Source of the DNA: Trypanosoma brucei
Taxonomy: Eukaryota
DNA length: 64,000 nucleotides
Reading direction: 5' to 3'
Assembly: GCA_000002445.1 (NCBI GenBank)
Contig: CH464491.1
Coordinates: forward strand, 2,464,001-2,528,000
Positions 24,443 to 64,000 of this stretch are shown piece after piece (position 1 is the stretch's first letter; each line of letters begins with the position of its first letter). A program made the position numbers and the translations under genes. The notes below the pieces were generated by a model. It was not told where the DNA came from and searched no databases. It was given only the letters and a program-made list of their open reading frames with translations.

Positions 24443-24870
24443 GATGCACTAACAGACCTTAGCGCAATCGAGGTATTGGTGTAAAGTCGGTCAATTGTAG
24501 GCGAGTATGCATCAGTGCAAGGGCTGACAAATATTTCCCTGCAGCTGCCATGTTCGGCTGCCCTTTTGATCATCCAAACGGGTCAGTTAAACCATAGAGC
24601 GTGAGACATGCGAATAAACGTAAAGCTTTGGAGGTATATCTCCGTTACACGCTGCCCATGTGATAGGATGGCGCCTGAATGGATAAGGAAAGCGAGCTGA
24701 TGGCAGGAAGAAATGTGAATCCCATTATTTGTTGTGTGGAAATTATATGTGGATGTGAGAGTGAGAGTGAGGTTGGTAAGTTGATAACTGTACGTGTGGC
24801 GGTGATACGACACCCCACTGAATAAGATGCTTCATCAGTATCTCCTTCCTCTTCATGCCAATTCAAACCA
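24443..24870. mobile_element. SIRE-like short interspersed repeat (about 428 bp), copy 1, inverted relative to copy 2
   Basis: The reverse complement of 24443-24870 is nearly identical to 52813-53239. The ORF-track peptides are identical on opposite strands (24583..24813- equals 52872..53102+, and 24645..24929- matches 52810..53040+). The 428-bp length equals the reported size of the T. cruzi SIRE element. Confidence 0.6.
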
Positions 24871-24930
24871 GCTGCATATATACGCCCGTCTGCGGAGTAG
24901 GAAACGCAAGAAAGAGAGACAAGAGACAAG

Positions 24931-35021: not shown

Positions 35022-38000
35022 AATTTGAGGAAAGAAGGTGGGGAATAAAGAATGGAGGAAGGAAAGGGGGAGATAGGGACGATGTACGCAAGGTGGAGGT
35101 CGCTGCAGTAGTCACTGCGCTCGCTGTTACGAAGACAGCACGGGCAAGTGATTAACGGTCCAACTAACCGCACCCTTGAAGAGGGAAAACGATGGTAAGG
35201 GTTCCAACTTGTTTTGCTGCACTGCATGTACATATATACAAACTTAGAATTGTGCATGTATCTTGCATTCTTCGTATCTTTTTTGTGTACGTGCGCCTTC
35301 ACGTATCCCTCTCTTTTCCGTCTTCTTCTATCGCTCTGCATGTCCTCTCCTTTATTTTCGACGTGCCACGGGCGCTGTCAACCATTGGAAATGAATTCCA
35401 GCATATTATACGCAAACGCAAACATCCATTTCAGTTTGAATGGGCGGATTTTGGAGGGACGTGATCAGTCTTTTTATGTGTCTCGCAGTTCCGTACCCTT
35501 TCTCTCACACATTGCCGTGTTTTTTTTTGTGATTGCCTAACGTCTTTCAAAAAGGTGGAATTACGACACACGCAAAGGTGTGTCAAGGGTGGATATGAAG
35601 TTGAAGCAAGGGAAAGGAATGAGAATAAATGTAAAAGAGGTAACTGAAGCAGGTGGAGGTGTCTGTAGAAAGGGGGCGCACAACAAGTTGAACATGTGGA
35701 GTATCGTGAAGAATCCCAAAAGAAAACAAGAAAAAAAGAGGAAAACATTTCGCCCTTCTCTTCTTTTTATTTCCCCTCTCCTCCCTTGTTTCTCCTTCAT
35801 TTCAATAGGCTATCATAAAGAATCACTCCAGTTTATTTTTCCAGTGTTTCTGCTTCTTTTTCTGGCCCTTCTCTTCTCTTCTCTTCTCTTTTTTGCTTTT
35901 TTTCTTTTTTGTGTGAGCGATTGTTGTTATTATTGTTTTCATTACTTTCACTATCATCATCATTATTGACTCGTCCTTATTGGCGGTAAAGGACACCGTG
36001 AGAGAAGAGGGTGAATATTGTTAAAGTTGACGTAATTATGAGCCCTTCAGGAAGGATATTTCCCACCTTGTAGAATTTCATGGGAGTGTACTGTGCATAT
36101 ATATATATATATATGGATATGAATAAACATATTTATTACCTACGCAGTCCTGTTAGGCAATGTTTTGATTTGCTGCTGCTGTTGGCATTCCCCCTTCCAA
36201 CTCGATCGTGTGCCCGATTTCATCCCTCTAATTCACTTTCCCTTAAGGCTCATCTCACCTGTGACAGAGTGGGCGGCGCATGAAAATATTTTCCATTAAT
36301 TTTATATGGATGAGTTAAATTCTTTTGTTTCTGCATTTTGATTCTAGTTCGGGTGGGTTGGTGCGGTGCCACTTGTTGAAAGTGGGGTGAAGTATTTTTT
36401 TTTTAGGTTCGTAAACTGCGGCAACGACAGCAGTGACTTCATCATGAAAAGAATCCACTAGTGCGATTGTGACTGCGCGGCCCTTGTGACTTCGGGGCTG
36501 GCGGCACATAATTATCTCTACAGTTGTTTCATCGCATTGGTTTCCTTTTTTTTTCCTGGTTGCCATGGTGTTGGTGGTTCCCCGCACACACTTACCTTTT
36601 CGTTCGTTTTCACTTACTTCCTGCCATCGTGATATCGGTACTACATGAAAGAGGAGAGAGGAAATTTGGGGGGAAACTATGCGATTCTATTTTTGTGAAG
36701 AGCTGGCATTCTTCTTTTATATCGTCCCCTGTTCTGCATGCAGCTTTTCGCATATGCATAAGAGTTGAATGGTGCGGCGATGAGTCGAGAAAAGAAGGTT
36801 GGGGAAACAAAATAATCACGTGAAGGTTGGAAGGAAAAGGGAAAGGGCGGTGGAAGAAGAAACCTTAGAAGGAGAGAAGGCGATGGTAAGTGGCTTTCGA
36901 GAAGCGGAAAGCGACCTACCACGGGGGTAGGGAAATATTTTGTCCACTCTCACAGTTTTTTGTCTGCCTTGTGGTTTTTTTTAACTAGTTATTTTTTAAA
37001 AAGTAAATCACTTTTCAAAGTTGATTGCTTTTGCTCCTTCATTTGCATAATTTAGAACGTAAAGCCCCCACGACTGCTTAGAGAGAGTTCCTGTTGGAGC
37101 CACGAGACGGATGGGAAGGACAAGAAGGGTCGAAACCGTTCAGTGAATCGTACATCACACTTTCCATGATTGCATAGCCACGCACTCGTAAATATAAATA
37201 AATATATATATATTTGCGCTTGCATATGCATATGCATAACCCCACTGAAAACACCTACTTGTGTAATTCACACCTCCAATACTTCCTACACCGCTTATAT
37301 TATTTTTTCCAATACTGCACACTTTGTGGCTTCTGTATTTATCACCTACCATTTGACTGTAGTAGTAAAGTACAGCACAGGGAAATAGTAAGGAGCGATA
37401 AGAGGAAAAACAGACGAGAGCACCGGTTTGTTGCAAGGTATAGCATCGATAGTATGGGAGATTCTGAAGCCACTGCGGCTGCTGCTTTAGAGCAATCCAT
37501 GCGAAGTGGCCGGACCGTGGTTTATTATACTCACCCGCAGAAGCTTCCATCCACATCAAGGGGCCTAACCAATATCGTTTCTGGTGATCAGCAGGGCAGT
37601 GGGGCAGACAGTCGTCATTACAAACATGAAGAGGTTGTCGCGGCGGGTGATTTCTCTTTCCTCCCGTTCCCATCGTATTGTGGAAGGACAACCGCCAACA
37701 CGGTTCTCTACAAGCATTTTCTGTCTTTTGACGTCCACACATGAAGTGAATCTCTCAGATGCACGTTAAATCCTTCGCACGCACTTCCGCCGTTTCCACC
37801 TCACCAAATGACATCCCCCTTTGAGTTTGTCTTTCTGCTGTGTGCGCCCTTTTTTTTTTGTTGTCGCGGCAGCGGACACCTCCGAATGGTGGAAGATCCT
37901 CGGTTCCCGTGATGGTTACTAAACACCTTTCTTGCTCTCACCCTCCATTATTTGTCTTTAACTCTTTAGTATTTAGTGAAACTGCTGCAATTATTGTAAA

Positions 38001-38086
38001 TTACTGTCCCCCCCCCTTCGCTCACAACTGTTTGCTCGCTGAAATCGCTGCTGTCACTGCTACCCGGTTCGCACCGATAAAAGGGA

Positions 38087-49202: not shown

Positions 49203-49537
49203 CAAATAATCAACAAGGTGGAATCAGTGGAGACAATTTGGAGAGATAGTGCAGTACTGCGCCCTACTGAATTCGGGGTTGTTTCGTTATTATCGTTTAC
49301 GTTTCGTACGCATTTCTTGTTTGTCTTCGCTTTTTTTGGATATGCGTGATGTGGCGCGTCGTTTTCACACAGCCTTTTTCCCTAATGTTAGCCCTCCAAA
49401 CCCTCACCCCCTCAATCTGAAGAAAAAGAGAGGGGCTTTCGTATCCTCAGGACTCGACCGCAAGTATGTCTTTAATTTTTTTTTGTATCATCCCTCATCC
49501 GTTCACCCGCACAAAGTGTTCCAAGGTGTCGATCATC

Positions 49538-50731
49538 ATGCAGATGTTGGCCCCTGGTGCTTTCTTCAACGCATTAAAGGTCCGGGGGGTTACACACTTT
49601 TTTGGAGTTCCTGACCCCATTCTAAAATATTTCTGTGCCTTCGTGGCAAGTCACACGACACCGAAGGAACACATCATCACAGCAAACGAAGGGAATGCAG
49701 TGGCCATGGCTGCAGGTTACCATCTTGCAACTGGGGGACTCCCTTTGGTGTACATGAAAAACAGTGGCTTAGGCGATGCACTCAATCCCCTGATCTCTCT
49801 CACACACGCTGAGGCGTGCAGCATTCCCATGTTTATAGTCGTTGGTTGGCGAGGAGCTCCTGATGCTGGAAATGAGCTACCGTGTGCCGCAGAAGGGCGC
49901 TTGACCGAAGGAATCCTACGTGCTGCTGAGGTCCCGTATATCATTTTATCTTCTGCTTGTGGAAACGGGGAGCAGTCGATGGAAACAGCTCTGGATATGG
50001 CACTGAAGCACGTGCATAATTCAAGGACGCCCTATGCCTTTTTGGTACCACCAAACTTTTTTGAGGAATGCGCTTACGAAGGGGTTGGAGAAGGTATTGC
50101 TGAGCTTCCCATGACTCGCAGGGAGGCGGTTGAACAAGCACTGCGCCAAATAGACCGGGGAGATATAGTTGTGGGCGCCGCAAGCTTCCTTGCTCGTGAA
50201 ATCTTTGAAGTTCAGGAGTGTGCCGGGATGCGACACGGCCCACAATTCTTCCCAGTCGGCAGCATGGGTCATTGTTCTTCCGTAGCAGCGGGTATAGCAT
50301 TGGCCAAACCAGAAAGGCAAGTGTTTTGCTTTGATGGAGATGGCGCATTCCTTATGCACATGGGTTCATCAGCAACCATCGGCGGTGTAGCCGCCATACA
50401 TTTAATAGGTACGGGCGAAACTTCCCTCATGCGCAACTACAAACATGTCGTTTTCAACAACGGATCCCACGATTCGGCAGGTGGTCAACCCACTGTGTCT
50501 TTTGATGTATCCCTCACGCAAGTGGCGAGTGCGTGTGGTTTTAGGACTGTCCGCGAAGAACCCGTAATGGACCTTGGCGAAACTGTGCGGGCCCTTCAGG
50601 AATTAAAGAAGGCGGAAGGGCCCGCGTTCTTGGAAGTATTTGTGCGAAGGGGCGGCCATTCAAACCCACAATGTGAACTTCCCTCTTTAGATGAGAGCAA
50701 ACAAGCTCTCACTAACTGCTTGAGGGGCTAG
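49538..50731 (+). CDS. Phosphonopyruvate decarboxylase-like thiamine-diphosphate enzyme (Ppd / sulfopyruvate-decarboxylase family)
   Basis: ATG at 49538 (MQMLAP...) after a polypyrimidine tract; the track ATG at 49466 is less likely. N-terminal pyrimidine-binding region FFGVPDPILKY...EGNAVAMAAGYHLATG...YMKNSGLGDALNPLISL. C-terminal diphosphate-binding motif GDGAFLMHMGS...VFNNGSHDSAGGQ (GDG-x24-27-NN). Length of about 397 aa is typical of Ppd. Confidence 0.7.
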   Translation: MQMLAPGAFFNALKVRGVTHFFGVPDPILKYFCAFVASHTTPKEHIITANEGNAVAMAAGYHLATGGLPLVYMKNSGLGDALNPLISLTHAEACSIPMFIVVGWRGAPDAGNELPCAAEGRLTEGILRAAEVPYIILSSACGNGEQSMETALDMALKHVHNSRTPYAFLVPPNFFEECAYEGVGEGIAELPMTRREAVEQALRQIDRGDIVVGAASFLAREIFEVQECAGMRHGPQFFPVGSMGHCSSVAAGIALAKPERQVFCFDGDGAFLMHMGSSATIGGVAAIHLIGTGETSLMRNYKHVVFNNGSHDSAGGQPTVSFDVSLTQVASACGFRTVREEPVMDLGETVRALQELKKAEGPAFLEVFVRRGGHSNPQCELPSLDESKQALTNCLRG

Positions 50732-51132
50732 TAATATCAGAGTACGCGGAGGGTGAGAAACGGCATATATGTGGATCAACACCTCGTTTGAGCGCTATTA
50801 AACGGGTATCGGGGGGGGGGGACCTGTGGGGAAACAAAAGAGGAAGTCGCTTTATTTTCTCACAATCAAACCCAAACAATTTGGTAGTACCAATGGAAAG
50901 GGAGGAGGAGCGAGTGAACGCAAGTAGTGAAGTAGAAGGGATGAACCCAACCAACAAGTCAAATGTTATCTTCCACTGTTACCCCTCATCTCTCTAGTAA
51001 GTGACGCTCCGACGTGGCTGGGGTGAAGACAGAAGTTCTGCTCCGTACCGGCTGAAGTGCGTAGGAAAGGCAAAACTAACAAGCATTTCTCAAGCGGCCC
51101 GCAATAGAAACATCGCTGAAAAGAAAGGGGGA

Positions 51133-52605
51133 ATGTTAAGGCGTACAATTTTCCTGGGAAGGGTAACCCGCTCTTGGACCAAAGGATCTATAGTTAAGGC
51201 ATCGGCCCATTTCCCAGATTCTGTGAGGGCTGATCCCGCAGAAAGACGTAATGAAGACTCGTCTCCGAAGGAAAGCCGCACATGGTCTCTTCATGACGGC
51301 CCGTGCAGCGAACCTCTTCACGTTCCCAAACATATTCAATGGGCAACACAGAAGGTGAGAGTTTGGGGGCAACTAATGCGAGTGGATAAGGCTGCTGCAA
51401 TAAACCTCCTGCTTCAACCTTGTTACTGGGGAGCCAGTCTAGCAGTAACTCGGGCCATCGTCTGGGAGGGGGCGGATCCTGTCGTTTTGTTCGCTCCTTT
51501 CATTCCCGTACATTTGATCGTCCTGTTCGGCGCTGGTGCCTTTTTGGCTCGGGGTGCGGGTTGTATTATTAACGACATGTGTGACAGAAAGTTCGACCGA
51601 ATGGTAGAACGCACCAAAACACGGCCGCTTGCTAGCGGTGTTGTCAGCATGAAGGAGGCATCAGGCCTTCTCATAACAGTAGCTGGTTTTGCGCTTGTTA
51701 TTGCACTAAACCTGTCGCCCATGGCACTTGCTTCGGCGGTAGCGTTAGCTCCCATCGCGGCAGTTTATCCGCTCATGAAGCGTATAACCTACATGCCTCA
51801 GCTCGTTCTGGGACTTTGCTTCAACGGCGGCATTTTTGTTGGGTATGCTGCCGTGCTAAACCGCATTGATTTGGCCGTTACGCTTCCTATCTACTGCTCA
51901 GCCGTCGTGTGGACAGTTTTGTATGATACCATCTATGCGTACCAAGACAGGGCGGACGACCTGAAATGCGGTGTGAAGAGCTCGGCTATTCTTATTGGTG
52001 ACAGGAAGCATATTCTCACTTTCATGATACTCCCCATCGGCATGGGTATTCTTATTTCGGGATTGATGGTCTCACAGTCGCTTCCGTTTTACATCGGTGT
52101 CCTCTGTTGCGTTTGGTACCTTCAGGGTGTCGTTGATAACGTCAACATATACGATGCGTGGTCATGTGGTATGGGATTCCGCAGGAACGTACGATTTGCC
52201 ATCCTGGTTACTTTTTCTCTCTGCCTTGGAAACGTGTTGTGGGCACTCGCATCTGAGCACCAACCGGAAAAGGACGCCGCGAGCAACGCCATATCGGAAA
52301 AGTCGGCCTTGATGAAATTCCTTCTTTTGAATAAGGAAGCGGAACCCATGTCGTACAGCGTGCAAGATATTCGTTGGGTAGACCGTTTTGCGCATCCGGC
52401 ATTCGTGGCAGCGCAGAAGGCTCAACACGAGGGAGAGGAAAAAACGGTGGTGGTGCCGGCGTGGATGCGGCGTGAGTACCTGGGTGAGAATGTAGGGACT
52501 ATCATGCGCTTTTTTGGCGTTGACGAGGAAGCAATCCAAACTTGGCAAAAGTGGTGGTACGCGCAACTTGACCACTACAACATGTTCTCCAGCATCGCCG
52601 TTTAG
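51133..52605 (+). CDS. COQ2: 4-hydroxybenzoate polyprenyltransferase (UbiA/COQ2 family), mitochondrial
   Basis: First ATG at 51133 (MLRRTIFLGRVTRSW, presequence-like); the track start 51001 is GTG. First Asp-rich motif CIINDMCDRKFDRMVERTKTRPLASG (NDxxDxxxD). Second motif region YAYQDRADDLKCGVKSSAI. Multiple transmembrane helices. About 130 aa of hydrophilic C-terminal extension. Confidence 0.8.
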   Translation: MLRRTIFLGRVTRSWTKGSIVKASAHFPDSVRADPAERRNEDSSPKESRTWSLHDGPCSEPLHVPKHIQWATQKVRVWGQLMRVDKAAAINLLLQPCYWGASLAVTRAIVWEGADPVVLFAPFIPVHLIVLFGAGAFLARGAGCIINDMCDRKFDRMVERTKTRPLASGVVSMKEASGLLITVAGFALVIALNLSPMALASAVALAPIAAVYPLMKRITYMPQLVLGLCFNGGIFVGYAAVLNRIDLAVTLPIYCSAVVWTVLYDTIYAYQDRADDLKCGVKSSAILIGDRKHILTFMILPIGMGILISGLMVSQSLPFYIGVLCCVWYLQGVVDNVNIYDAWSCGMGFRRNVRFAILVTFSLCLGNVLWALASEHQPEKDAASNAISEKSALMKFLLLNKEAEPMSYSVQDIRWVDRFAHPAFVAAQKAQHEGEEKTVVVPAWMRREYLGENVGTIMRFFGVDEEAIQTWQKWWYAQLDHYNMFSSIAV

Positions 52606-53431: not shown

Positions 53432-55294
53432 ATGGAGAATGTGGTTATGGAAGCGGGGGAGGGAGGTTCTAAGTCGAATGCCCCGCAGAATGATGATGCA
53501 AGTGTCATGAATGCCTTGTACGAGCCGCCCCCTCCATTAGCTTCTGACGGTGTGGATGATGCCTTCATTGGCATGGCGTTAGAGGAATGTAGTTTACGGG
53601 ATGTTTATTCGTACAGCTGCCACAGATTTGGGGTCCGACCCAACGAAAACATCCTGCGGCAACTCCCTCCTGTTGCTGGTGATGAATGGGTTAGAAAAAT
53701 AAAGGTACTCGACTTTTCCGCGGTGTACCTTGGTGGTAAAGGGTGCCTTTCGCTCGTACCAATAATTGAACGTTGCACGGAGGCAACACATTTGATGATG
53801 CCCAACGTTGGCTTAACACACGAAGCGGCCGCGCCTCTTTTTGAAGTCATGCGGTACCACCCCAGTGTGTCGTGGATGGACGTATCGAAAAATCGCCTGA
53901 ACGATGATGTGGGTCGCTGGATTCTCAACGCCGTGATCGAAAACCCGAGGATAAGGTTCGTTCTTCTCCGAGATGCGGGTATTAGTCCACCGCTTCTGCA
54001 AAAAATCGAAAACCGTTTGCACGAACGAATGTATGGAACGGTGGAGGCTATAACTCCATCCATTCGCGTAACTTACGCCGAAGGATTTTCTCAACTGTTT
54101 GAATCCTCCCTTGGAACTGGTGCGAATGACACCGCAAGGGTTCCGGTGCATTACGTTCCCCCATCCGTGGCTGCAGGTCTTGTGGAATTACGACACCAAC
54201 TGTATCGCAATGCCGAATCCATGCGGTGCGTTTACAACTGTTTTACCCACAACCTCACACCGGAGTCGGGAGGGTGCGCAAGCGACGCAGGGACAGACGC
54301 AGAAGAATTACCGGAAACAAACAGTGAGGCCGGATTCGGCGCCCCTCACCCTGATCGCTGCTCGTGGCGGTCGTTTTTCTGTGGGCTACGCCTGCTTGGT
54401 GTCCGCGCCGTCTGCAAGTCCCTTGAAGATAGCGTGGCCTTCGCCAACTTATGCGGCATATGTAATGTTGAGACCGTACTTTTTGGAAAACTTATCCAGC
54501 TTTTGAGGCCGCATGTGGCGATTAAAGATGAGATGACGCCGGAATCACCGCCTGTGCGCGGGAACACTATTCCAAATCAGTTTGCCGACGTCTCGCCTCC
54601 GTTGGATGTGCAGCAGGGGGCATCGATGGATGCAGAAGAGATTCCATCAAGGGATCTAAGCGGCAACATGCGCGCAGCTACGCCTGAAATGGGGAAACCA
54701 CAAGCAGATACACCGTCTGTTCCTACCCAAGAGGCTGCCCGTATGGCCTCCGAAGCGAGATGCTCGCCACTCACCCTGAGGCCGCTGCATTGCACACTTC
54801 ACGAAAAAAGGTCGTCTTTAGGCCCATCCCTTTTGGACACATTCGTGACGACCCCGAGCATTGCTGGAGTGCATGCCAGTGGGCCCTTGGAGGCGCGGCT
54901 TCGGCTGGATCGTACGTTTGATTCACGGAACAAGCAGACTGTTGTGGACCAACTGTATGATGAACGTGTCACTCTTAGCGAAGTCTTCAAAAAAACAGGT
55001 GGCGAAGACCCTGATGCAAGTGCCCCATCTTACCTAGTGGATATAGATGAGGTGATTAAGCACGCCGTCTCTCGCGTAGGTGAGTCGAATCGGGAAATTG
55101 TGAAATCTTTGGTGGAGCCATGGGCTGTTGGCGTTGAGGATCGAGTGCTCGTGAATACTGAAGGTTGGTTAAGCTCCATGTACGTTCCCCAATTAGAGGC
55201 GTCAACGCTAATGCCGTTCTCGTTTTCTGAAGAAAAGCTTATCTGGGCCGGTGTCACGGTGGAGGAATTACGAGAGTCAGTTGACTTATGGTGA
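53432..55294 (+). CDS. Leucine-rich-repeat (RNI-like) protein, last gene of the + polycistron
   Basis: ATG at 53432, 620 aa. Repeats of the LxxLxLxxNxL type (VLDFSAVYLGGKGCLSLVPII, HLMMPNVGLTHEAAAPLFEVM, WMDVSKNRLNDDVGRWILNAV, FVLLRDAGISPPLL). Acidic/Ser-rich C-terminal half. Confidence 0.6.
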   Translation: MENVVMEAGEGGSKSNAPQNDDASVMNALYEPPPPLASDGVDDAFIGMALEECSLRDVYSYSCHRFGVRPNENILRQLPPVAGDEWVRKIKVLDFSAVYLGGKGCLSLVPIIERCTEATHLMMPNVGLTHEAAAPLFEVMRYHPSVSWMDVSKNRLNDDVGRWILNAVIENPRIRFVLLRDAGISPPLLQKIENRLHERMYGTVEAITPSIRVTYAEGFSQLFESSLGTGANDTARVPVHYVPPSVAAGLVELRHQLYRNAESMRCVYNCFTHNLTPESGGCASDAGTDAEELPETNSEAGFGAPHPDRCSWRSFFCGLRLLGVRAVCKSLEDSVAFANLCGICNVETVLFGKLIQLLRPHVAIKDEMTPESPPVRGNTIPNQFADVSPPLDVQQGASMDAEEIPSRDLSGNMRAATPEMGKPQADTPSVPTQEAARMASEARCSPLTLRPLHCTLHEKRSSLGPSLLDTFVTTPSIAGVHASGPLEARLRLDRTFDSRNKQTVVDQLYDERVTLSEVFKKTGGEDPDASAPSYLVDIDEVIKHAVSRVGESNREIVKSLVEPWAVGVEDRVLVNTEGWLSSMYVPQLEASTLMPFSFSEEKLIWAGVTVEELRESVDLW

Positions 55295-58008
55295 GGTTTA
55301 CTCTCTTTTGTTATTCACTAGAAGGATATGTGTAGTATATATTTCCCTATGTGAGTCGCTTATTTGCATACCGGTGAAGCGGTTCCTTATGGTGTCAGCG
55401 CCGATGCAGCAACACACGCCAAGACGACACCGCTCTGGTCGCTGGTGCTTTTTTTTTTTTTACTTCTATTTTTCTTTGCCCTCTGCGGCTACCAAAGGAG
55501 CCATCACAATTAGCAAAGGTAGAACTTAGTTGGCCGTACGGCGGGAAAGGTTGTGTGGTAGAATTGGTGTTGAATGTCCGGTGTTTTTCCAATATGTACG
55601 ATGCCGCGCAGAGGCGCAGTGAACCAGCAAAACTGTGGGGGACAAAAAGGAATATACTGATCTGCAAAAGGTCTCGGCTGACGTTTTACCACTTTTTGTG
55701 TACGGATGCGCCGAGACCGAGGTTGCAGTAAAACGTGGCACATAGGGAAAACGACAAAGAGCAATGCGAGCAGCCCCAATTGCAGGTCGCAGGCGCTCTA
55801 AGAAATAAAAGGAAGAGAATAGTGAGCAAGGCAATTCGGAAGCGTGGACCGGCGGGAAGTGCTCCGCGAGGAAAAAAAAATAAAGGCACGACTCAACAAA
55901 TCCACCTAAAAGTGCGGAGGAGAGCAGGATGGAATACATCAACTGCAACATTTATGGAACACAACACCAAGTCCAATTGCTTCCTGAAACAATTTTTTGG
56001 CGCTTGTGTAGAAAAGTGGAGCTGGAGCGGTGGAAACTCGCATGTGACTACATACTGCGATAAGTCATTAGTGAAAGGGAATTTGGGGTGGAGAGTGCAT
56101 ATGGGCAAAAATAGGTTTCCACAACAATTAAACACAAGATTGTTGATTGTTAGCAGTCGTCGCACTACCCGCTTGTGTGCAACAACTTGGCTGTGATATG
56201 GAAATGCTGTGAGCCGACGAGGTCGGGGGAGCGGATGCCAGTTTGGGGGGGCGAATCCCTTTCTTGATTTCCTCTGCCTGGCGCAAGAATGCACCCCCCC
56301 CCCAAAAAAAAAAGAAAACAGCTGGGGAAGCCGAGAAACACCACTGCCCAGGAGAGTATCAACGAGAAAGACAATCTCGCAAGGTTTAAATCCGACTAAT
56401 AACATTGTTGACAGCAACCCCTTTCTGATGTTCAGCAATTGTAATGTGTCTCTCGGCCCGGGGGGGGGGGGGGGAATCCTCTCCGGCACAATTGCACCAT
56501 GCCTTTTCCAACTCGAGCTCACGCTTCATCGGTAATATGGGAATGGGAAGAGGGTAGTTTGTCAGTAACCTTTCGTGCGACTTTGCTAGCATGTACTCCA
56601 CTTTCCCCTCCACACGTGTGGATATTTTCCCCCAGTTTGAGAACCCTTTCAACGGGCTTTTCCCCTAAGTCCCGGGCGTTACACCCCCACTCCCATGATG
56701 AGCCGTTTTGAGACTTCGCCACGAGACCGCCGGTATAACTCTGCGGTGAGGAGTTCATTATTTTCTTTTGTCCTGCGTCGCCGACGCAACCTCCACGATA
56801 AGAAGAAACCCCCGCTTTCCGCGAATGGGCCACTCACGTCAGTTGTCCACCCTCGCGCGAGGAACCACTTACCAGACGAAGTGAACTTAACAACCACCCT
56901 CGTACGATCTTGTTTTTGTATAAATATTGCCCCTCTTCCCGCACGCAGCTGCGCCAGCTACAGTCCGCGGTGCTCGGAACAAACCGTTTCTCGCTTTTTC
57001 CCGCATCCCTTTACTTTCCGCGCAAGCGCGATCCGAGGACACAATGCACGACTCCAGCTCCGACGATGCACCCACCATTTCCTAGAAACCCCTCCGACAA
57101 TGAATTCCTCACGAAACGCGTCATCTTAGTTCACGAGTCCAAAAACGAGAGATAAGGACAAAAATAATCTTGCAAAAGAGTGAGATGTTACTCAGGTTTG
57201 CACCAACATAAATTGCAGCCACACAGATGGGAAGGGAAGATAAGGGCGTGCGCACGCACGCATTAGTTGGATTCGAACAAACGAACATCCCGTTGATCAA
57301 GCACAATGCACTGACGAAATGGGCTGGCGAGACCGGGCTACTCATCCGCCCACTGCGAGCCGAAGGCAGTTGTCGATAATAGCAGGCACCATTTCGCACG
57401 TAAATTCATTACACAAACACGCAAGCAGTTCCTTCATTTGTTTTGGGTTCCAAGACAGCGCAACCCCGCCGCATTTTGCCCAATTCCCATACCCGCACGC
57501 ACGCACGTGCCACTCCCCGGGAAAAAGTTGGGTCAAGATAACTTTTGCCGAGCGCCTGACGTGTGAACTCGAATCTCCAACATGGTACCTGGAACACTGC
57601 AGTGAGCCGCTAGCGCCACAGTTATTTTCGTTGGGTACATCCCAACTGCTGTGGGAAACACTGCAACCCCGTCCTGTCCCGCGAACTGTCGCCCTAAACA
57701 TGTAGAACCCGTGGCATTTCCACTCCAATGCCGCACCCAATCGGTGATATCTTTCCCGCATTCCATGCGGATGTCAAGTTCATTCGCAAGAGATGCGCCT
57801 TCAAGCCAGCACGCCAACCCCTAGCCCACCATACGACCAAAGACACGGCATTCGCGTGGCTGCATTCAGTGGCGCGTACTCGCAAAACTGCAATGTGTTC
57901 GTAGATTTGTCAACAAAGTGAAAAAAAAATAATAATAATACACTCAATCCCATCATTTGAGTGAACGTGTGCAGTCACTAATTGCCGGTGCGACATACAA
58001 AACAAACC
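55295..58008. other. Convergent strand-switch region between the + gene block and the - gene block (presumed RNA Pol II transcription termination zone)
   Basis: All identified genes upstream are on the + strand and all downstream are on the - strand. No long ORF in 2.7 kb. Contains homopolymers C10A10 (56294-56313) and G15 (56460-56474). Established knowledge: convergent strand-switch regions in trypanosomatids are termination sites and often carry Pol III genes. I could not fold a convincing tRNA here. Confidence 0.7.
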
Positions 58009-58806
58009 TTATTCAAGTTCGCAAAGGATGCTTCGCTCCCAGCTTCCATCGATCGACAAGTCAACAAGCTCCGTGTTAACAACACTCTCCTGCTGCTGCA
58101 TACTCAAAAGAAAATGATGGAGCAAGCGAGGTGCGATAACGTGGGGAGTCGGCTCTGCCCCGCTCAATCCTCGTAGCCGGAGTTCCTCCACTAAAGACGT
58201 CGCTGCTTCGTTCGGCATCTCGCACATAACGATATCGTTGAAGTAAAGCAGATTATTACTCACATTCAGTCCCGCACCATGCATAGAGACCCAATTCCCC
58301 AGTTGAAGCCCGACGAACCCCATCTTTCGTGGTGCCACATCTCCCCAACTGTCGGACCAAACCCCAACCCTCCCTCGATGGGCGGGGATGTTGTATTCGC
58401 CCGCTACGTTAATCATAGCCTGTTCCAACACGGAACTAAACCACTCAATTGGGGAACGTGGTTTGTCAGAAGCCGTGCATTGCTTCCACAGAACCTGCAC
58501 GTTAACAATGGGGTACATAGTTACCTGCCCTGGTCCATGGAATGTGACGCCCCCTCCCCTCCTCGTCTTGACCACCTCGGCGGCACAACCCGCTTTGATG
58601 CCATTGGAAGTGTCTCGCCTGCCAATCGTGTAAACAGGAGACGAATGTTCCACAAGCAAAACAACGTTGGGGATGAGGCGAGCAGATTTGTCTCCACGAA
58701 TGTAGCGCATCTGCCTATCGATTTTCTTTCGAAAAATTGCCTCTTGCAGCCGCAGAACATCGTGGTAACGACGGCTTCCAAGGTTATACGCCCGCATTCC
58801 ATTCAT
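58009..58806 (-). CDS. LIPB: Lipoyl(octanoyl)transferase LipB/LIPT2
   Basis: ATG at 58806 (- strand), 265 aa. Signature RRGGGVTFHGPGQVTMYPI (LipB RGGxxTYHGPGQ motif). Residues LLVEHSSPVYTIGRR upstream. Overall length typical. Confidence 0.8.
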   Translation of the reverse strand: MNGMRAYNLGSRRYHDVLRLQEAIFRKKIDRQMRYIRGDKSARLIPNVVLLVEHSSPVYTIGRRDTSNGIKAGCAAEVVKTRRGGGVTFHGPGQVTMYPIVNVQVLWKQCTASDKPRSPIEWFSSVLEQAMINVAGEYNIPAHRGRVGVWSDSWGDVAPRKMGFVGLQLGNWVSMHGAGLNVSNNLLYFNDIVMCEMPNEAATSLVEELRLRGLSGAEPTPHVIAPRLLHHFLLSMQQQESVVNTELVDLSIDGSWERSILCELE

Positions 58807-59142: not shown

Positions 59143-61806
59143 TCAATCCCTGCTTCCTTCACTGCCTCGCCCACTGATATCCTCAGTTCCTGACCTTTTC
59201 ATCGCTTCACTGGCTTGGTCACTGCCAATCTCCTCAGCATCTACTTTTGCTGCTTCACTGGTTTGCTTACTCTCCGTGTCCTCGGTGTCTGGATCTTTTG
59301 CTGCTTCGCTTGTTCTCTCACTCGCACCTTCTGTACCAGACCTTTTCATCGCTTCACTGGCTTGGTCACTGCCAATCTCCTCAGCATCTACTTTTGCTGC
59401 TTCACTGGTTTGTTTACTCTCCGTGTCATCGTTGTCTGGATCTTTTGCTGCTTCGCTCGTTTTCTCATTCGCATCCTCTGTATCAGATGGCTTCCGCGCT
59501 TCACTTGTCCATTCACTGTCAATCTCCTCAGTGTCCGCCTCTTTTGCTGTTTCGCTTATCTGTTTACTGCCAATCTCCTCAGTCTCCGCCTCTTTTGCCG
59601 CACCACTCGCCTCGTTGCCTTCAATATCCCCGGTATCTGGATCTTTTGCTGCTTCACTGGCTTGTTTACTGCCAATCTCCTCAGCATCTTCTTCTTTTGC
59701 TGCTTCGCTCGTTTTCTCATTCGCATCCTCCGTATCAGATGGTTTCCCCGCCTCACATGACTGCTCGTCCCCAAACTGTTCATCGGCATATTCTTCATTG
59801 GCAACCTCCTGTGCGGCGCCTTCCTCATCCGCATTGGCACCTCCATCGGCAACAGCGTCCTCAGCAGCGACAGTGTCTTGCGCAATAGGAGGTTCTGTGA
59901 CTTGCCCCTCCTCAACCTCAACGTCACCTTCTCCACCAGCCCCATTCTCAACTGCAGAACGGGAGTGTTGGCTTGTGGAACCCTCGTGCAAACGCGAGGC
60001 GCTACCACCGGGGGCGCCCTCAGCGTGTTCACCCTTTGGAGCCTCAACACCACTGGTACTTCTCATACGCCCAACTGAAGAGGCGGAAGGAGGTGCCCCT
60101 GAGCCACCAAAGTTGTTTTGAGTTGCAACGGATGGCAGGGACAGCTCATGTCCCAGTCCGAGGGAACGTTCGTAGAGGGCAATTATGTCGGCTGAGGCGG
60201 ACAGTTTATCTTCATCTTCGCAGATTCGTTTAGCGTATGGTTCGAGTACTTGCCTGAATTGTTCATCCCCAACATTCTCAACAAACTCCAGCACAAGATG
60301 ATTATCTGACGCCTCTTTCACGTTGAATTTCGTGAACCACGGGGTTAAAACAGTGAACACTCCATTTTCGCCCGTTTCTTCAAGTTGGATCACGTTGGGA
60401 ATCCCACAAATCTCCACCTTAAAGGCAGCCTCCGTTTCTCCACTCGAAGAGAGTCGGCTGAGAGGCGGTAAAACAACTTGGCCTCCTTCCTTGGCGTTCT
60501 CGATCTGGTTCACTTGGCCGGCCTCATCACAACAATAATAAAACGGTTTAGCGTCAGTCACTTCTGACGTGCAGTGGCAGATGACTGTATATGCGAGTGT
60601 GGGGTAGTTTTTGAGTAGCGTACCCCCTGCCAACTCATCCGCCAATTCCTGCCGCACTCCAGTAAGTTCCTCAAGTTTGTCACCGTTGCATGATATCAGG
60701 AGTTGAGCCAGTTTAGCGTAAGCAATGCTTCCAGACGGATATTTCTCTGCCGCAGCGTGACACATAATGTGAATATTTTCCGCAGCGACGTTGCAACCGC
60801 TCAGATAAGCTTCCACAGTGGGTAAATCGGCGACAAGAGCCAGAGCGTCCTCCGCATCCTTCTCCGCCTCCTCACATGACATGAGAACGAACCGGCTGTT
60901 ACCCGAGCCATCCGGCTGTATTGCCAAGACTCGATGCCATATCTCCGGTTTCCATTCTGTACGGGCATCGCAGTGGGAACTGAGCACATTGACGAAGCTC
61001 CCAGTTAGTGCGGTGTCGTCTGCGGGCTGGTCCCCAGACGCCTTGCGTTTGCCGCTATCAGCGGGTGTTTCTTCGCTCTTGCTCAAGAAAGGGAAGACGT
61101 TGATAAAAGCCGTCTCTATCGCCTGACCGGCAGTCCACTTGTCGAGTGCACTGACGCTTACTTTATCACCATCAACACCGATAACCTCCGCAAGAGTACT
61201 CTCCTCTTTAGCAGAGAGAGGCCTGGCCGTCCCGACGTGCTCAAGTATGGCACGCATAAAGGACTCCCAGAAGACTTCAGACTCCCCTTCACCAAAGTAA
61301 CGCCCCCAAAAGTCAAGCAATGGCTTGCTTTCCGTGCACTCCTTGGCGGGTTTTTGGGAGCGGCACAGCTCAATAACGTAATTGATTATCTTGGGTGTGT
61401 TAATGCCCTCTATAGAGGTACGTTTCCTGCCTTCTTTAAAAAATACAAAGTAAGACTTCGATTTTCCGCGCCGGCTCTCAAGGATATCCTTCCAGAACGG
61501 TGCCAAGGATTCTCGAAACTTTACCTTGTCATCTGTTTTCATGTGCTGATGGTGCTCCTCTGTCTGGTCAATGCTCTCGAGAATGGAGTTGCACTCCACG
61601 GAGAGAAAACGAAGATACGCCTGATCAGAAGCGTCCATTTGCAAGCGCCTAAAGGTCTCAGACAGCGCCTTGCTAAGTCCCCACTCGGAACTGTACACAT
61701 CTAGTACCGCCACCCCATGTTGCTCATGTATAAGCCGAAGCTCCTGCTCCAGTTTCACGGCATTTGTGATGTCCTGTACAATTTCTGTGCGGTTTTGCTG
61801 TTGCAT
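59143..61806 (-). CDS. Hypothetical protein with a thioredoxin-like N-terminal region lacking CxxC and a C-terminal acidic tandem-repeat array (51-aa unit)
   Basis: First ATG at 61806; the track start 61824 is TTG. N-terminus VAVLDVYSSEWGLSKAL resembles a thioredoxin-fold strand-loop with the CxxC replaced. The C-terminal about 200 aa consist of SEAAKDPDTEDTESKQTSEAAKVDAEEIGSDQASEAMKRSGTE repeats. Confidence 0.6.
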   Translation of the reverse strand: MQQQNRTEIVQDITNAVKLEQELRLIHEQHGVAVLDVYSSEWGLSKALSETFRRLQMDASDQAYLRFLSVECNSILESIDQTEEHHQHMKTDDKVKFRESLAPFWKDILESRRGKSKSYFVFFKEGRKRTSIEGINTPKIINYVIELCRSQKPAKECTESKPLLDFWGRYFGEGESEVFWESFMRAILEHVGTARPLSAKEESTLAEVIGVDGDKVSVSALDKWTAGQAIETAFINVFPFLSKSEETPADSGKRKASGDQPADDTALTGSFVNVLSSHCDARTEWKPEIWHRVLAIQPDGSGNSRFVLMSCEEAEKDAEDALALVADLPTVEAYLSGCNVAAENIHIMCHAAAEKYPSGSIAYAKLAQLLISCNGDKLEELTGVRQELADELAGGTLLKNYPTLAYTVICHCTSEVTDAKPFYYCCDEAGQVNQIENAKEGGQVVLPPLSRLSSSGETEAAFKVEICGIPNVIQLEETGENGVFTVLTPWFTKFNVKEASDNHLVLEFVENVGDEQFRQVLEPYAKRICEDEDKLSASADIIALYERSLGLGHELSLPSVATQNNFGGSGAPPSASSVGRMRSTSGVEAPKGEHAEGAPGGSASRLHEGSTSQHSRSAVENGAGGEGDVEVEEGQVTEPPIAQDTVAAEDAVADGGANADEEGAAQEVANEEYADEQFGDEQSCEAGKPSDTEDANEKTSEAAKEEDAEEIGSKQASEAAKDPDTGDIEGNEASGAAKEAETEEIGSKQISETAKEADTEEIDSEWTSEARKPSDTEDANEKTSEAAKDPDNDDTESKQTSEAAKVDAEEIGSDQASEAMKRSGTEGASERTSEAAKDPDTEDTESKQTSEAAKVDAEEIGSDQASEAMKRSGTEDISGRGSEGSRD
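59186..59760. repeat. 153-nt (51-codon) tandem repeat, about 3.5 copies with internal sub-repeats, inside the - strand CDS 59143-61806
   Basis: Direct reading: gaccttttcatcgcttcactggcttggtcactgccaatctcctcagcatctacttttgctgcttcactgg... recurs at 59186 and 59339, with degenerate copies further on. Plus-strand ORFs 59138-60121, 59215-59760 and 59247-59888 are repeat shadows. Confidence 0.85.
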
Positions 61807-63501
61807 TACCACGCAGTAAAACAAGACACTTATAAGTCAACTGCAGTAAACCTTCTAAGCACTGCACCGTGGAGGGATGTGCGTCGAAGAATTGCGGGGG
61901 AAACGGTAGGAAAGAGATAGTCGAAAGGGGTTGCGGAACATGATAAGCACAGAAAGAATACTGAAATCGGCATTTTTTTGTCAGAGGGGAAAGGAAAAAG
62001 AAAAAGAAAATTTCCCTCCCAGACACATGGAAGATAACTAAATAATACTGATAACAACGAGACACACAACGCACAGTAATCACCAGCGTTTTTCTTCCTT
62101 CCCTTGGCATGGTTCGGTTCCACCCCACATAGATTTCGCATTCAATAAAAGAAAAAAAGAAAACATCATCAATCTTTCCCCCTCGGGGGGGGGGAGAGGG
62201 AATGATTGTTTCAAATTCCCCCGCTCCATCCTCACTACAGGGCTACATGCAAGCAAGGTCAACAGTTCACAAACAAACAGACAAAGGAAGGGATCTTTTC
62301 AGATGCGGGTCCCACAATTCCAACAGAACTGCGCCGTTGGCCGTCTCTGCTCTACTCCACAGTTTGAACATGCCTTCAGCAGTTCCTGCGCATGGGAGGC
62401 GTCCAGTGGGGGGAGCCGCGACGGCACGCAATTTCTAACGCCCCCGTCACGGCCGTGAGGACACGCGCCGACGGACGCGTTCGCAGGACTGTGAGGAGGC
62501 GAAACACTAACAATCCCTCCTAGCACAGCCCCTTCAGATGCAACGGGGTTTGTGCAACGTAACTTCCCCTTATTATTCGCATGCAGAAGGCGCAAGGATG
62601 GATGTTTACTTTGGGGAGAGGGGAGCTGCAAAGGTTCTTGCGTATTCGCTCCCTGCCGCTGAGCCGCTCCACTCGTGCTGCGCACCCGCGGGGGAGAAGC
62701 GACTGCGTCGCTGGAGTTGCGGCGCTTCGAGGAATGTGTCGCGGGACAAGTAGCTTGAACGTCTTCCCAAATCACTTGCAGCTCCTCCAGTTTCAGTTCC
62801 AACTGGGACAGCTCTACCTTCTCCTCCCCTTCCATACTGAAATTTTTCGATTAGTCAGTATACGCGCATATTCGTGTGACGAACGGCAAGGTGTTGAGAG
62901 AATGAAATAGGGGAGAGAGTACGTAGATGTATGCATTTACAAATAAATAAATACATATATATGTATATATATATATATGTGTGTATCAGTGTAAAGGTGA
63001 AAATGAACAAACAAAAAGTGTGGACACGAAAATCGGAGATGAACGACGCCCTCCATCCCGCCCTCGGGGTGCCTGTCCATCACTTGGTAACACGGCAAAA
63101 AGGGAAGAAGCAAATTTCTTTTATCTCCCATATCACATCCCCCACACCGTCAGTGTATGTGTTTCTCCTTCAAGCATTTCCGTTCCTTCCTATACGCATG
63201 TGTGCACACCCGCGCACGTGTGCCGTGACACATCTGGCCAACTTGTCTTATGCCCCTTGCGGTAAAATACGGAAGAAGGAGCTTCGCCCCCTCTTCGCCT
63301 CTTCACCTCCGCCCAGCCGTCAATGTTATACCCTCTGGAGGCAGCGACGCCGACACGGCACCACGGCCGCCACAGCATTACAGAACAACAGCAACAAAAC
63401 ATACAAACAGAAAGAAGAATGAGGGGGAAGAAAAAGAGAGAGAACAGTAATGTCCATTTAGAAAAAATGGCGTCGTTTTTTCTTGCTCTTTTTCATTTCC
63501 T

Positions 63502-64000
63502 TCAGATAGATGACTCTGGATTGAAGAGGTAGTATCGTATCGTGGGAAGCTGATCATTGACGCAGTTCCTCATTCTGCTGGACAGCGTCCAGTTGCACAC
63601 GATGTGGCCGTCGTGGGACTTAACGACGACGCCGCCCAGTGCCTCCTCTGCGTTAAGATATTCTTTACCCATACGGATGCTCACTCGTGTTCCCACTGTT
63701 TTGAGGTACCACTGCTCGAGTTCACTGAGCATGCCGGTAACAATTGGCTCATCATTCTTGCAAGTGTAAACGATGGCGTCCGTGCGCACGGCAGAGAGAG
63801 CTTCATGCAGGATGGAGACTAGGAGCTTTTTGTAGCTGTCAGTGTTCTTCACAAAAGCCATCAGCTTCGTCTTGATATTCTCCTTTAGTTGTTCCACAAT
63901 ATTAGACTGGGCCTCCATGATGCGCAGCCGTTGTGCCTTGGAGAAGTTCGCCCGCGCCACGCGCCGACCGACATCCACCTGTTTTAACTTTTGCTCATTA
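63502..64000 (-). CDS. V-type H+-ATPase subunit E (partial; N-terminus lies beyond the window end)
   Basis: The - strand reading frame stays open to position 64000; the track 'start' at 63978 is GTG. Aligns to V-ATPase subunit E: AQRLRIMEAQ matches QRLKIMEYY, DSYKKLLVSILHEAL matches TRYQVLLDGLVLQGL, and the C-terminal GGVVVKSHDGHIVCNWTLSSRM matches [22 protein letters not shown]. Confidence 0.75.
   Translation of the reverse strand, partial: NEQKLKQVDVGRRVARANFSKAQRLRIMEAQSNIVEQLKENIKTKLMAFVKNTDSYKKLLVSILHEALSAVRTDAIVYTCKNDEPIVTGMLSELEQWYLKTVGTRVSIRMGKEYLNAEEALGGVVVKSHDGHIVCNWTLSSRMRNCVNDQLPTIRYYLFNPESSI

Follow-up and report, generated by a model that had tools for sequence, protein, structure and literature searches.

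The DNA between two facing gene arrays on chromosome 11 of Trypanosoma brucei brucei TREU927, a 2.7-kb non-coding gap at positions 55295-58008 of the 64-kb window analysed here, raises the question of whether it is simply the place where two polycistronic transcription units meet and stop, or whether the abrupt homopolymer blocks inside it, or some RNA gene, give it a further role. [quoted passage not shown] An earlier note on this DNA had drawn attention to the homopolymer blocks and had proposed either small RNAs, such as snoRNAs, or a pure termination zone as the content of the gap.

Results

Long ORFs occupy the + strand of the window from position 909 to 55294 and the − strand from 58009 onward, and these strands are backed by Pfam domains (UbiA on the + strand; LplA-B_cat and vATP-synt_E on the − strand) as well as by exact matches of the window genes to annotated TREU927 proteins. 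The last gene of the rightward unit (53432-55294, + strand; EAN79889.1/XP_829001.1, an exact TREU927 match) encodes a conserved hypothetical protein of 620 aa, with orthologues in T. congolense (44% identity) and T. cruzi (40%) and a codon score of 0.185, which is typical of real genes. The leftward unit ends with the gene for the lipoyl(octanoyl) transferase LipB, or octanoyltransferase (58009-58806, − strand; EAN79891.1/XP_829003.1, also an exact TREU927 match), which carries the LplA-B_cat domain with E = 1.2e-19 and has orthologues across trypanosomatids. The ORFs, Pfam domains, exact protein matches and orthologues all describe two opposite-strand polycistronic arrays whose 3′ ends face each other. 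Because the genes on both sides have homology support, the strand switch between converging units proposed in the earlier note is confirmed, and neither flanking gene is mis-stranded.

The accompanying description of the gap as having no long ORF needs a partial correction: eight ORFs of 104-209 aa are present in the ORF listing, but none of them carries a coding signal. No Pfam match was obtained for any of the eight, and their codon scores lie between −0.06 and 0.07 (−0.06 to −0.02 in the left arm of the gap and −0.06 to 0.07 in the right arm), against 0.12-0.21 for real genes. Those starting with ATG had no exact-sequence entry in the protein collection, and when the gap was compared with the orthologous loci in six further species, no translated similarity emerged. 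One ORF of 141 aa (55526-55951, − strand) has a gene call in T. b. gambiense; its 10 nt differences give at least six amino-acid changes and are mostly non-synonymous, and in T. b. equiperdum IVM-t1 it is frameshifted. Decayed relics of RHS, GP63, VSG/ISG-like genes, retroelement RT and Leishmania neighbour genes were rejected as well, as tblastx and blastn against loci L004-L011 gave only scattered HSPs at chance level. No protein-coding gene was found between the two terminal genes.

Both gene-array ends coincide with conserved breakpoints, at which lineage-specific genes are located in other trypanosomes. LipB is followed by a retroelement in T. vivax and by RHS in T. cruzi, GP63 is present at the breakpoint in T. 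theileri, and in L. tarentolae LipB is internal to its unit. On the side of the 620-aa gene, the orthologue is followed by VSG/ISG-like genes in T. congolense, and a convergent GP63 array is located there in T. cruzi. Judged from gene order, the gap is an old synteny breakpoint, one that is filled in other trypanosomes by lineage-specific surface-protein or retroelement genes.

Skew that tracks the coding strand has been described in T. brucei (PMC5579346), and in the window the skew of genes was about −0.01 to +0.15 on the + strand and about −0.02 to −0.16 on the − strand. The G/C skew flips inside the gap, with the best change point at 56251 and a support interval of 56237-56598 that contains the homopolymer pair. 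The left arm, counted over 55295-56293, has 275 G against 200 C (p = 7e-4, skew +0.16), and the right arm, counted over 56475-58008, has 324 G against 464 C (p = 7e-7, skew −0.18), so the skew changes its sign between the two arms (Fisher p = 8e-9 for their G/C counts). Each arm carries the skew of the unit next to it, G>C on the side of the rightward unit and C>G (read on the + strand) on that of the leftward unit. On the basis of skew, codon scores and Pfam, the non-coding left arm (55295-56250, + strand) is presumed to be the 3′UTR and run-off of the + unit, and the non-coding right arm (56600-58008, − strand) to be the 3′UTR of LipB and its run-off. The whole gap would then consist of 3′UTR and run-off DNA of the 620-aa hypothetical gene (+) and of LipB (−), with the two run-off arms abutting in a compositional plateau of about 350 bp that holds the homopolymer runs. 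Note that the sequence by itself is enough to place a skew flip of this kind within a few hundred bp, which makes it a cheap estimate of the point where the units meet. The orientation of polypyrimidine tracts was also tried as a marker of transcription direction and was not discriminating (28 versus 31 in the + unit).

No Pol III gene was recognisable in the gap, as the earlier note had held: ARAGORN detected 0 tRNAs in the window, and Rfam at the gathering threshold gave no match in the whole window or in locus L002. At E ≤ 10, Rfam searches of 3.3 kb covering the gap and of a 221-bp sub-region returned chance-level matches only, with no tRNA among them. The T-loop-like sequence GGATTCGAAC, previously placed at about 57262, is actually located at 57269-57278, 7 nt away; that it does not sit in a foldable cloverleaf agrees with the negative ARAGORN and Rfam tRNA results. 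Read on the − strand (57269-57279), this site is the B-box-like TGTTCGAATCC, which corresponds to GGATTCGAAC on the other strand and has one mismatch to GGTTCGANTCC. The window contains 39 matches to the B-box GGTTCGANTCC with two or fewer mismatches, against 53 expected, and four matches to the decamer GGATTCGAAC with at most one mismatch, against 3.9 expected. A T-arm with 4/5 pairs can be drawn by eye at 57269-57279, but there is no acceptor or D arm, and a tRNA relic at this site was rejected because ARAGORN and Rfam were negative even on the 221 bp and the motif frequency was at chance.

The suggestion of snoRNAs or other small RNAs fared no better, with no Rfam family detected in the gap and a search for C/D box snoRNAs (C box RUGAUGA, D box CUGA, terminal stem) yielding one C-box heptamer and no candidate. 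RNA folds of 56270-56500 gave z = −1.5 on the + strand and z = −1.3 on the − strand in comparison with shuffles. A long-range C10:G15 hairpin or cruciform was used in the fold, but its energy was no better than that of the shuffles and it was rejected as a structured RNA. Published siRNA counts also bear on the gap. Among the 72 T. brucei cSSRs tabulated (PMC4721609), the chromosome 11 cSSR at 2,517,606-2,523,771 (Tb427), assigned to the gap by similar coordinates only and across different strains (2,547,850-2,550,679 in DAL972), gave 7.3 RPM in the wild type and 14.3 RPM in the H3.V knockout, a difference that was not significant (PMC4721609 S2 Table), against thousands of RPM at strong siRNA cSSRs (PMC4721609). 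siRNA-producing cSSRs, in which transcription of both strands overlaps, have dense 21-27-nt small RNAs in sense and antisense. Since the coordinate-matched cSSR yields few siRNAs, the two units probably overlap only a little.

It is highly improbable that the gap encodes an undescribed non-coding RNA, be it a lncRNA, a snoRNA-like or another small RNA, outside the Rfam models. DNA within the units is transcribed by default in trypanosomes and ncRNAs have been reported where units converge (PMC6294496, PMC4721609), and the gap is richer in GC (0.48-0.51) than most spacers between genes in the window (0.42-0.48), which would be compatible with such a gene. However, the chance-level Rfam matches at E ≤ 10, the lack of a C/D box candidate and the absence of a significant fold around the core all speak against it, as do the lack of sequence conservation of the gap outside Trypanozoon and the very low small-RNA counts at the cSSR that is its probable match by coordinates.

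The homopolymer blocks themselves were found by direct reading and regex exactly where they had been reported. On the + strand, C10 (56294-56303) is directly followed by A10 (56304-56313), which together are T10G10 on the − strand, and the G15 run, also detected by TRF, occupies 56460-56474. A10 and G15, earlier described as about 150 nt apart, are separated by 146 nt, and this unique spacer (56314-56459) has no significant fold. A third G-run, G7 followed by CGAATCC (56245-56258, + strand), lies at the skew change point and was also followed in the strain alignments; the pattern of a G-run followed by (CG)AATCC occurs in the window only here and at 56460-56479. Additionally, a T13 run (55449-55461, + strand) is located about 155 nt downstream of the stop codon of the 620-aa gene.

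Under an i.i.d. base model, the numbers of runs expected per 64 kb are 0.03 for C10, 0.04 for A10 and 8e-5 for G15, and all three are above chance. As a distinguishing property of the gap, the blocks nevertheless lose weight: like runs are present in ordinary spacers between other genes of the window, and in other strains the runs have a different length or an interruption. All seven G/C runs of at least 9 nt in the window are located in non-coding DNA; two of them are in the gap, where about 1.06 would be expected with an even spread over the 17,983 non-coding bases, and for this reason the homopolymers are not considered gap-specific. The same comparison for A/T runs of at least 9 nt gave four observed against 3.0 expected. 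TRF detected nothing but G15 in the gap and no repeat families were found there, so the AT-rich tandem-repeat arrays of a centromere are absent and this candidate was rejected.

Every run differs in length among Trypanozoon strains. In other strains, the C10A10 site has a C-run of 9-10 and an A-run of 12-13, the T13 site has a length of 10-12, and the G7 site (56245) is G12 in DAL972 and G8 in IVM-t1. At the G15 site, the sequence in T. b. gambiense DAL972 and T. b. equiperdum IVM-t1 is G7, then a unique segment of about 105 bp, then G9/G10, and T. equiperdum OVI has an assembly gap and G16. The site of the G15 run is structurally polymorphic and a hot spot of indels, and it should be noted that reference genomes differ in their structure here. 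No other copy of the segment of about 105 bp was found among the loci compared, and its origin as a degenerate duplicate of neighbouring DNA by unequal crossing-over was rejected, with local alignments no better than shuffles. C10A10 and G15 are best read as slippage-prone low-complexity DNA of a kind that is scattered through T. brucei non-coding sequence, and the instability of the runs together with their strain variability argues against a conserved signal.

The tracts could also be regarded as a sequence-encoded boundary, in which G15 on the + strand and G10 on the − strand form G-quadruplexes (G4) or, together with the A/T runs, rigid nucleosome-excluding tracts; flanking one nucleosome-sized spacer, they would slow both polymerases at a fixed point and help to define where termination chromatin is laid down. 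We consider this unlikely, even though several observations would fit it. In TREU927, G15 matches the canonical G4 regex (four G3+ tracts, loops of 1-7 nt), so the G-quadruplex prediction around 56290-56480 that had been recommended earlier does give a predicted motif, the sole canonical one in the gap, with just one other in the window; moreover, the two homopolymer blocks fall within the change-point interval of the skew, and the spacer of 146 bp between them is of the appropriate size. At T. brucei termination sites, peaks of G4-seq and G4 ChIP show a 2.6-5.4-fold enrichment, and TTS-associated genes are expressed at lower levels under a G4 ligand (PMC13316426). In T. brucei reporters, nucleosomes are depleted by poly(dG:dC) and poly(dA:dT) (PMC5579346). 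On the other hand, a canonical G4 requires more than the G10 of the − strand, and the G4-competent run is not conserved, given that in DAL972 and IVM-t1 the G7 and G9/G10 runs are split by about 105 bp and neither alone fits a three-tetrad motif. Comparable G/C runs are located in ordinary intergenic spacers, and within a gap of 2.7 kb, a feature of 180 bp would fall into a given 360-bp interval with appreciable probability. Also counting against a boundary, R-loops, a frequent companion of G-rich non-template strands, show weak enrichment at T. brucei cSSRs (PMC6294496). Our literature search for G-runs at T. brucei strand-switch regions found nothing. The full proposal, that C10A10, the 146 bp and G15 at the skew flip are a bidirectional boundary (G-quadruplexes and/or nucleosome-excluding tracts framing one nucleosome) fixing both the Pol II stop and the nucleation of chromatin, is quite improbable. 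If a boundary did operate here, T. brucei termination would have a DNA-sequence component and would not be purely epigenetic, and such a role of G/C tracts at skew flips, if it held genome-wide, would bear on how termination sites are specified.

In a transcription start region, hundreds of bp with a G/T-rich coding strand carry H2A.Z and H4K10ac and precede a gene array. With the C-run to the left of the G-run, the tracts have a divergent orientation, opposite to the flanking skew, as they would in a miniature divergent promoter with T10G10 (−) pointing left and G15 (+) pointing right, from which antisense transcripts enter both converging units. G and T stretches on the coding strand are indeed typical of T. 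brucei start regions and drive transcription in one direction (PMC5579346), and at L. major initiation sites no motif other than G-tracts of at least 10 was found (PMC2679053). Such a promoter is hardly credible, however: the tracts measure 15-25 nt against 210-416 nt for functional synthetic elements (PMC5579346), their orientation would arise by chance in one case out of four, the skew around them fits convergent and not divergent transcription, and the cSSR that is the probable coordinate match yields few small RNAs. A GT-rich Pol II promoter/start region was likewise rejected, with tracts this short, convergent skew and no downstream array in either outward direction.

Discussion

The gap shows neither a detectable Pol III gene nor a member of a known ncRNA family. 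Of the alternatives raised in the earlier note, the pure termination zone fits it best. The gap is probably an ordinary Pol II convergent strand-switch/termination region of chromosome 11, at which transcription of both units would terminate. Following published genome-wide work, in which termination at T. brucei cSSRs is chromatin-based, marked by H3.V, H4.V and base J and accompanied by a fall in Pol II and nascent RNA (PMC4721609, PMC9757043), termination in the gap would depend on the same chromatin components and would not be directed by a sequence terminator. The gap is an ordinary example of a known feature, present in the reference genome, and most likely it is one of the 72 cSSRs that genome-wide work has listed.

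Comparison with known systems places the locus as follows. With the G/T-rich start-region elements (PMC5579346; PMC2679053), the gap shares homopolymeric G/T stretches, with a C-run on the left and a G-run on the right, but its tracts are an order of magnitude shorter, lie in a convergent context and are flanked by the opposite skew. With the Pol III genes known at strand-switch regions, it shares a single B-box-like 11-mer with one mismatch, but the motif is at chance frequency and is accompanied by neither a cloverleaf nor a covariance-model match. G15 resembles the G4 sequences of T. brucei termination sites (PMC13316426) in fitting the G3+N1-7 motif and in being located in a termination region, whereas it differs from them in being a pure homopolymer for which two other Trypanozoon genomes have no G4-competent run. 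Compared with other T. brucei cSSRs, the gap has none of the tRNA genes seen at some of them and, provided that the match by coordinates holds, yields few siRNAs; at the same time, it shares with them two units ending head-on, a non-coding gap of a few kb, a skew flip and no evident sequence terminator.

Flanking genes and the strand switch

The 2,714-bp gap (55295-58008) is bounded on the left by a 620-aa ORF on the + strand (53432-55294; exact match to EAN79889.1/XP_829001.1 of T. b. brucei TREU927) and on the right by the gene of a LipB-like protein on the - strand (58009-58806; exact match to TREU927 EAN79891.1/XP_829003.1; Pfam LplA-B_cat). In the ORF scan of the window, all ORFs of at least 200 aa between 909 and 55294 lay on the + strand, overlapping antisense ORFs aside, including a 421-aa ORF (49466-50731; exact match to TREU927 EAN79887.1) and a UbiA gene (51001-52605; Pfam), and beyond, starting at 58009, the gene-like ORFs were on the - strand, among them the V-ATPase subunit E gene (63502-63978; Pfam). 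The 620-aa gene carries no Pfam domain, and orthologues of it exist in T. congolense and T. cruzi. Taken together, the ORF strands, the Pfam-supported genes (UbiA, +; LplA-B_cat, -; V-ATPase E, -) and these orthologues show that the strand switch proposed in the earlier note is real and that neither flanking gene is mis-stranded, which would have undone that proposal.

The window is taken to belong to chromosome 11 through its synteny with chromosome 11 of T. b. gambiense DAL972. Comparison within Trypanozoon covered three further genomes (T. equiperdum OVI, T. b. gambiense DAL972 and T. b. equiperdum IVM-t1), and the OVI locus was 99.7% identical over genes and gap, the gapped G-run being left out. 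The repeat-protein and LipB pair, single-copy in TREU927 (59143-61824 and 58009-58806), is duplicated in tandem on DAL972 chromosome 11 (locus L002, 2534-10798), as 987 aa plus a 217-aa LipB-like protein, then 777 aa plus a 265-aa LipB, and the duplication takes in approximately 390 bp of the LipB 3' flank. The 893-aa gene (- strand) contains a 147-nt tandem repeat at 59181-59487 (2.1 copies, 91% match, nested 48-nt period) with very strong strand skew (GC down to -0.36, AT down to -0.57), and its length differs widely across strains and species (893, 887, 777/987, 618 and 729 aa).

Coding and RNA content of the gap

The absence of a recognisable Pol III gene was confirmed: ARAGORN found no tRNA in the whole window, neither the window nor the DAL972 locus, extra segment included, had an Rfam match at gathering thresholds, and Rfam in E-value mode, applied to a 3.3-kb region and to a 221-bp sub-region at the T-loop-like motif, returned unrelated chance matches and no tRNA. 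The T-loop-like decamer GGATTCGAAC was located at 57269-57278, not at about 57262 as first given, and the motif on the - strand, TGTTCGAATCC, has one mismatch against the B-box consensus. Matches of these kinds showed no excess over shuffled sequence (B-box-like with up to two mismatches, 39 against 53 expected; decamer type, 4 against 3.9), and the motif is not part of a tRNA. The suggestion of small RNAs such as snoRNAs found no support in Rfam at gathering thresholds or in a simple C/D-box scan, which yielded one C-box heptamer and no candidates.

None of the eight gap ORFs (104-209 aa) had a Pfam match at E ≤ 1, and their codon-usage log-odds ranged from -0.06 to 0.07, whereas thirteen real genes in the window scored 0.12-0.21. 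One of them, of 141 aa (55526-55951, - strand), is annotated as a gene in DAL972; it differs between TREU927 and DAL972 by 10 nucleotides, giving at least 6 amino-acid changes, is frameshifted in IVM-t1, and is without coding constraint.

The GC content of the gap (0.48-0.51) exceeds that of most intergenic spacers of the window (0.42-0.48) and is near coding values despite the absent coding signal. Its right arm contains two (GCAC)n-type tracts in which purines and pyrimidines alternate (57246-57263 and 57494-57510), each 17-18 nt long, approximately 250 bp apart and potentially Z-DNA-prone; of the 17 further alternating tracts in the window, most are AT/GT-rich. The + unit holds two further gaps with neither an ORF of at least 200 aa nor an Rfam match, 22591-24930 (2.3 kb) and 35022-38086 (3.1 kb), the latter longer than the strand-switch gap.

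Homopolymer runs

Sequence reading and a regex scan placed C10 at 56294-56303, A10 at 56304-56313 and, 146 nt further, G15 at 56460-56474 (all + strand), exactly as noted earlier. The abrupt blocks are real, and such runs are far above the expectation of an i.i.d. base model, but the gap is not the only place where they occur. The window has seven G/C runs of at least 9 nt, all of them in non-coding DNA (22780, 26481, 38008, 50811, 56294, 56460 and 62185), and two fall in the gap against 1.06 expected by proportion (2,714 bp of 17,983 non-coding bases); for A/T runs of at least 9 nt, 4 were observed against 3.0 expected. The homopolymer runs are thus a general property of the spacers of this genome rather than something that marks the strand switch.

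The runs are also unstable across the Trypanozoon genomes compared: C10, A10 and G15 of TREU927 correspond to C10, A12, an N gap and then G16 in OVI, to C10 and A13 in DAL972, and to C9 and A12 in IVM-t1; G7 at 56245 becomes G12 in DAL972 and G8 in IVM-t1, and T13 at 55449 is 10-12 nt long in OVI, DAL972 and IVM-t1. At the G15 site the OVI assembly is interrupted by a gap. In DAL972 and IVM-t1 the same site (L002 12340-12447 and L003 12337-12442, respectively) reads CGGT-G7, a unique segment of approximately 105 bp, then G9 or G10. This segment has no second copy in any compared locus and no resemblance to neighbouring sequence. Since G7 and G9 add up to 16, its insertion into an ancestral G-run and, on the TREU927 side, a deletion or assembly collapse are equally plausible.

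G15 is the longest of the seven G/C runs, and the window has just one other canonical G4 motif. G4 peaks are 2.6-5.4-fold enriched at termination sites (PMC13316426), so that the tracts might conceivably act as G4s or exclude nucleosomes, but the strain polymorphism of the runs and the occurrence of comparable ones elsewhere argue against it. R-loops are only weakly enriched at cSSRs (PMC6294496). RNA folds of 56270-56500 use C10:G pairing but do not exceed shuffles in stability (z -1.5 and -1.3). That the tracts act as a cryptic divergent promoter is unlikely, because the GT-rich elements that function in T. brucei span 210-416 nt (PMC5579346).

At just two places in the 64-kb window (56245-56258 and 56460-56479) does a G-run precede (CG)AATCC and a stretch of pyrimidines. 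Both copies lie in the gap core, 215 bp apart, and are alike over no more than approximately 14 nt; other repeats or tandem arrays are absent from the gap.

Strand-skew flip

The coding strand in T. brucei is biased to G over C and T over A (PMC5579346), and in the window skew is mostly positive for + genes and negative for - genes. Within the gap, G/C skew is +0.16 on the left (55295-56293; G 275, C 200, p = 7e-4) and on the right (56475-58008) it is -0.18 (G 324, C 464, p = 7e-7), the two parts differing at p = 8e-9 (Fisher), with a maximum likelihood change point at 56251 (2-lnL support interval 56237-56598). We infer that each arm bears the mutational or compositional signature of its entering unit, and that a plateau of approximately 350 bp holding G7, C10A10 and G15 is where one unit meets the other. 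The polarity of the tracts is opposite to that of the arms, a C-run ending the G-rich arm and a G-run beginning the C-rich arm, an arrangement that has, for two runs, a chance of 1 in 4. The coincidence of this sharp flip with the homopolymers and the structural polymorphism at the G-run are the only points of interest, and mild ones.

Synteny in other trypanosomatids

No homologue of the gap was detectable outside Trypanozoon. LipB is followed by RHS genes on the same strand in T. cruzi, by a non-LTR retroelement (RVT_1, RNase H) in T. vivax and by GP63 genes in T. theileri; in L. tarentolae it lies inside its unit, with cullin and further housekeeping genes after it. The 620-aa orthologue of T. 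cruzi (L011, JABDHM010000047.1) stands after Kelch, TPP enzyme and UbiA genes, as in the window, and faces a convergent GP63 array; that of T. congolense (L010, CAEQ01001257.1) is followed by VSG-like and ISG-like genes. Both unit ends are thus old breakpoints, filled in other lineages by lineage-specific families. In T. brucei the two ends abut directly, and the gap is thus a recurrent synteny breakpoint in its "empty" state.

Probable transcription termination

Of the readings offered in the earlier note, that of a pure termination zone is the best supported, with a real strand switch and no gene or ncRNA detected. Pol II units from both sides would terminate in the gap with little overlap, as the sharp skew flip implies, and chromatin marks would be expected by analogy with other cSSRs. 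In T. brucei, Pol II terminates at cSSRs, where H3.V, H4.V and base J are enriched, and read-through at a subset of these sites gives overlapping transcripts and siRNAs (PMC4721609; PMC9757043). In DAL972 coordinates the gap corresponds to 2,547,850-2,550,679, within approximately 30 kb of a tabulated chromosome 11 cSSR (2,517,606-2,523,771), the next ones being more than 400 kb away (PMC4721609 S2 Table); judged by position, this cSSR is probably the gap. Its small RNAs amounted to 7.3 RPM in the wild type and to 14.3 RPM when H3.V was knocked out, a change that was not significant (PMC4721609 S2 Table), against thousands of RPM at strong siRNA cSSRs (PMC4721609), and siRNA output as low as this would agree with the sharp skew flip. 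In sum, the gap is an ordinary feature, in a reference genome, of a kind already catalogued.
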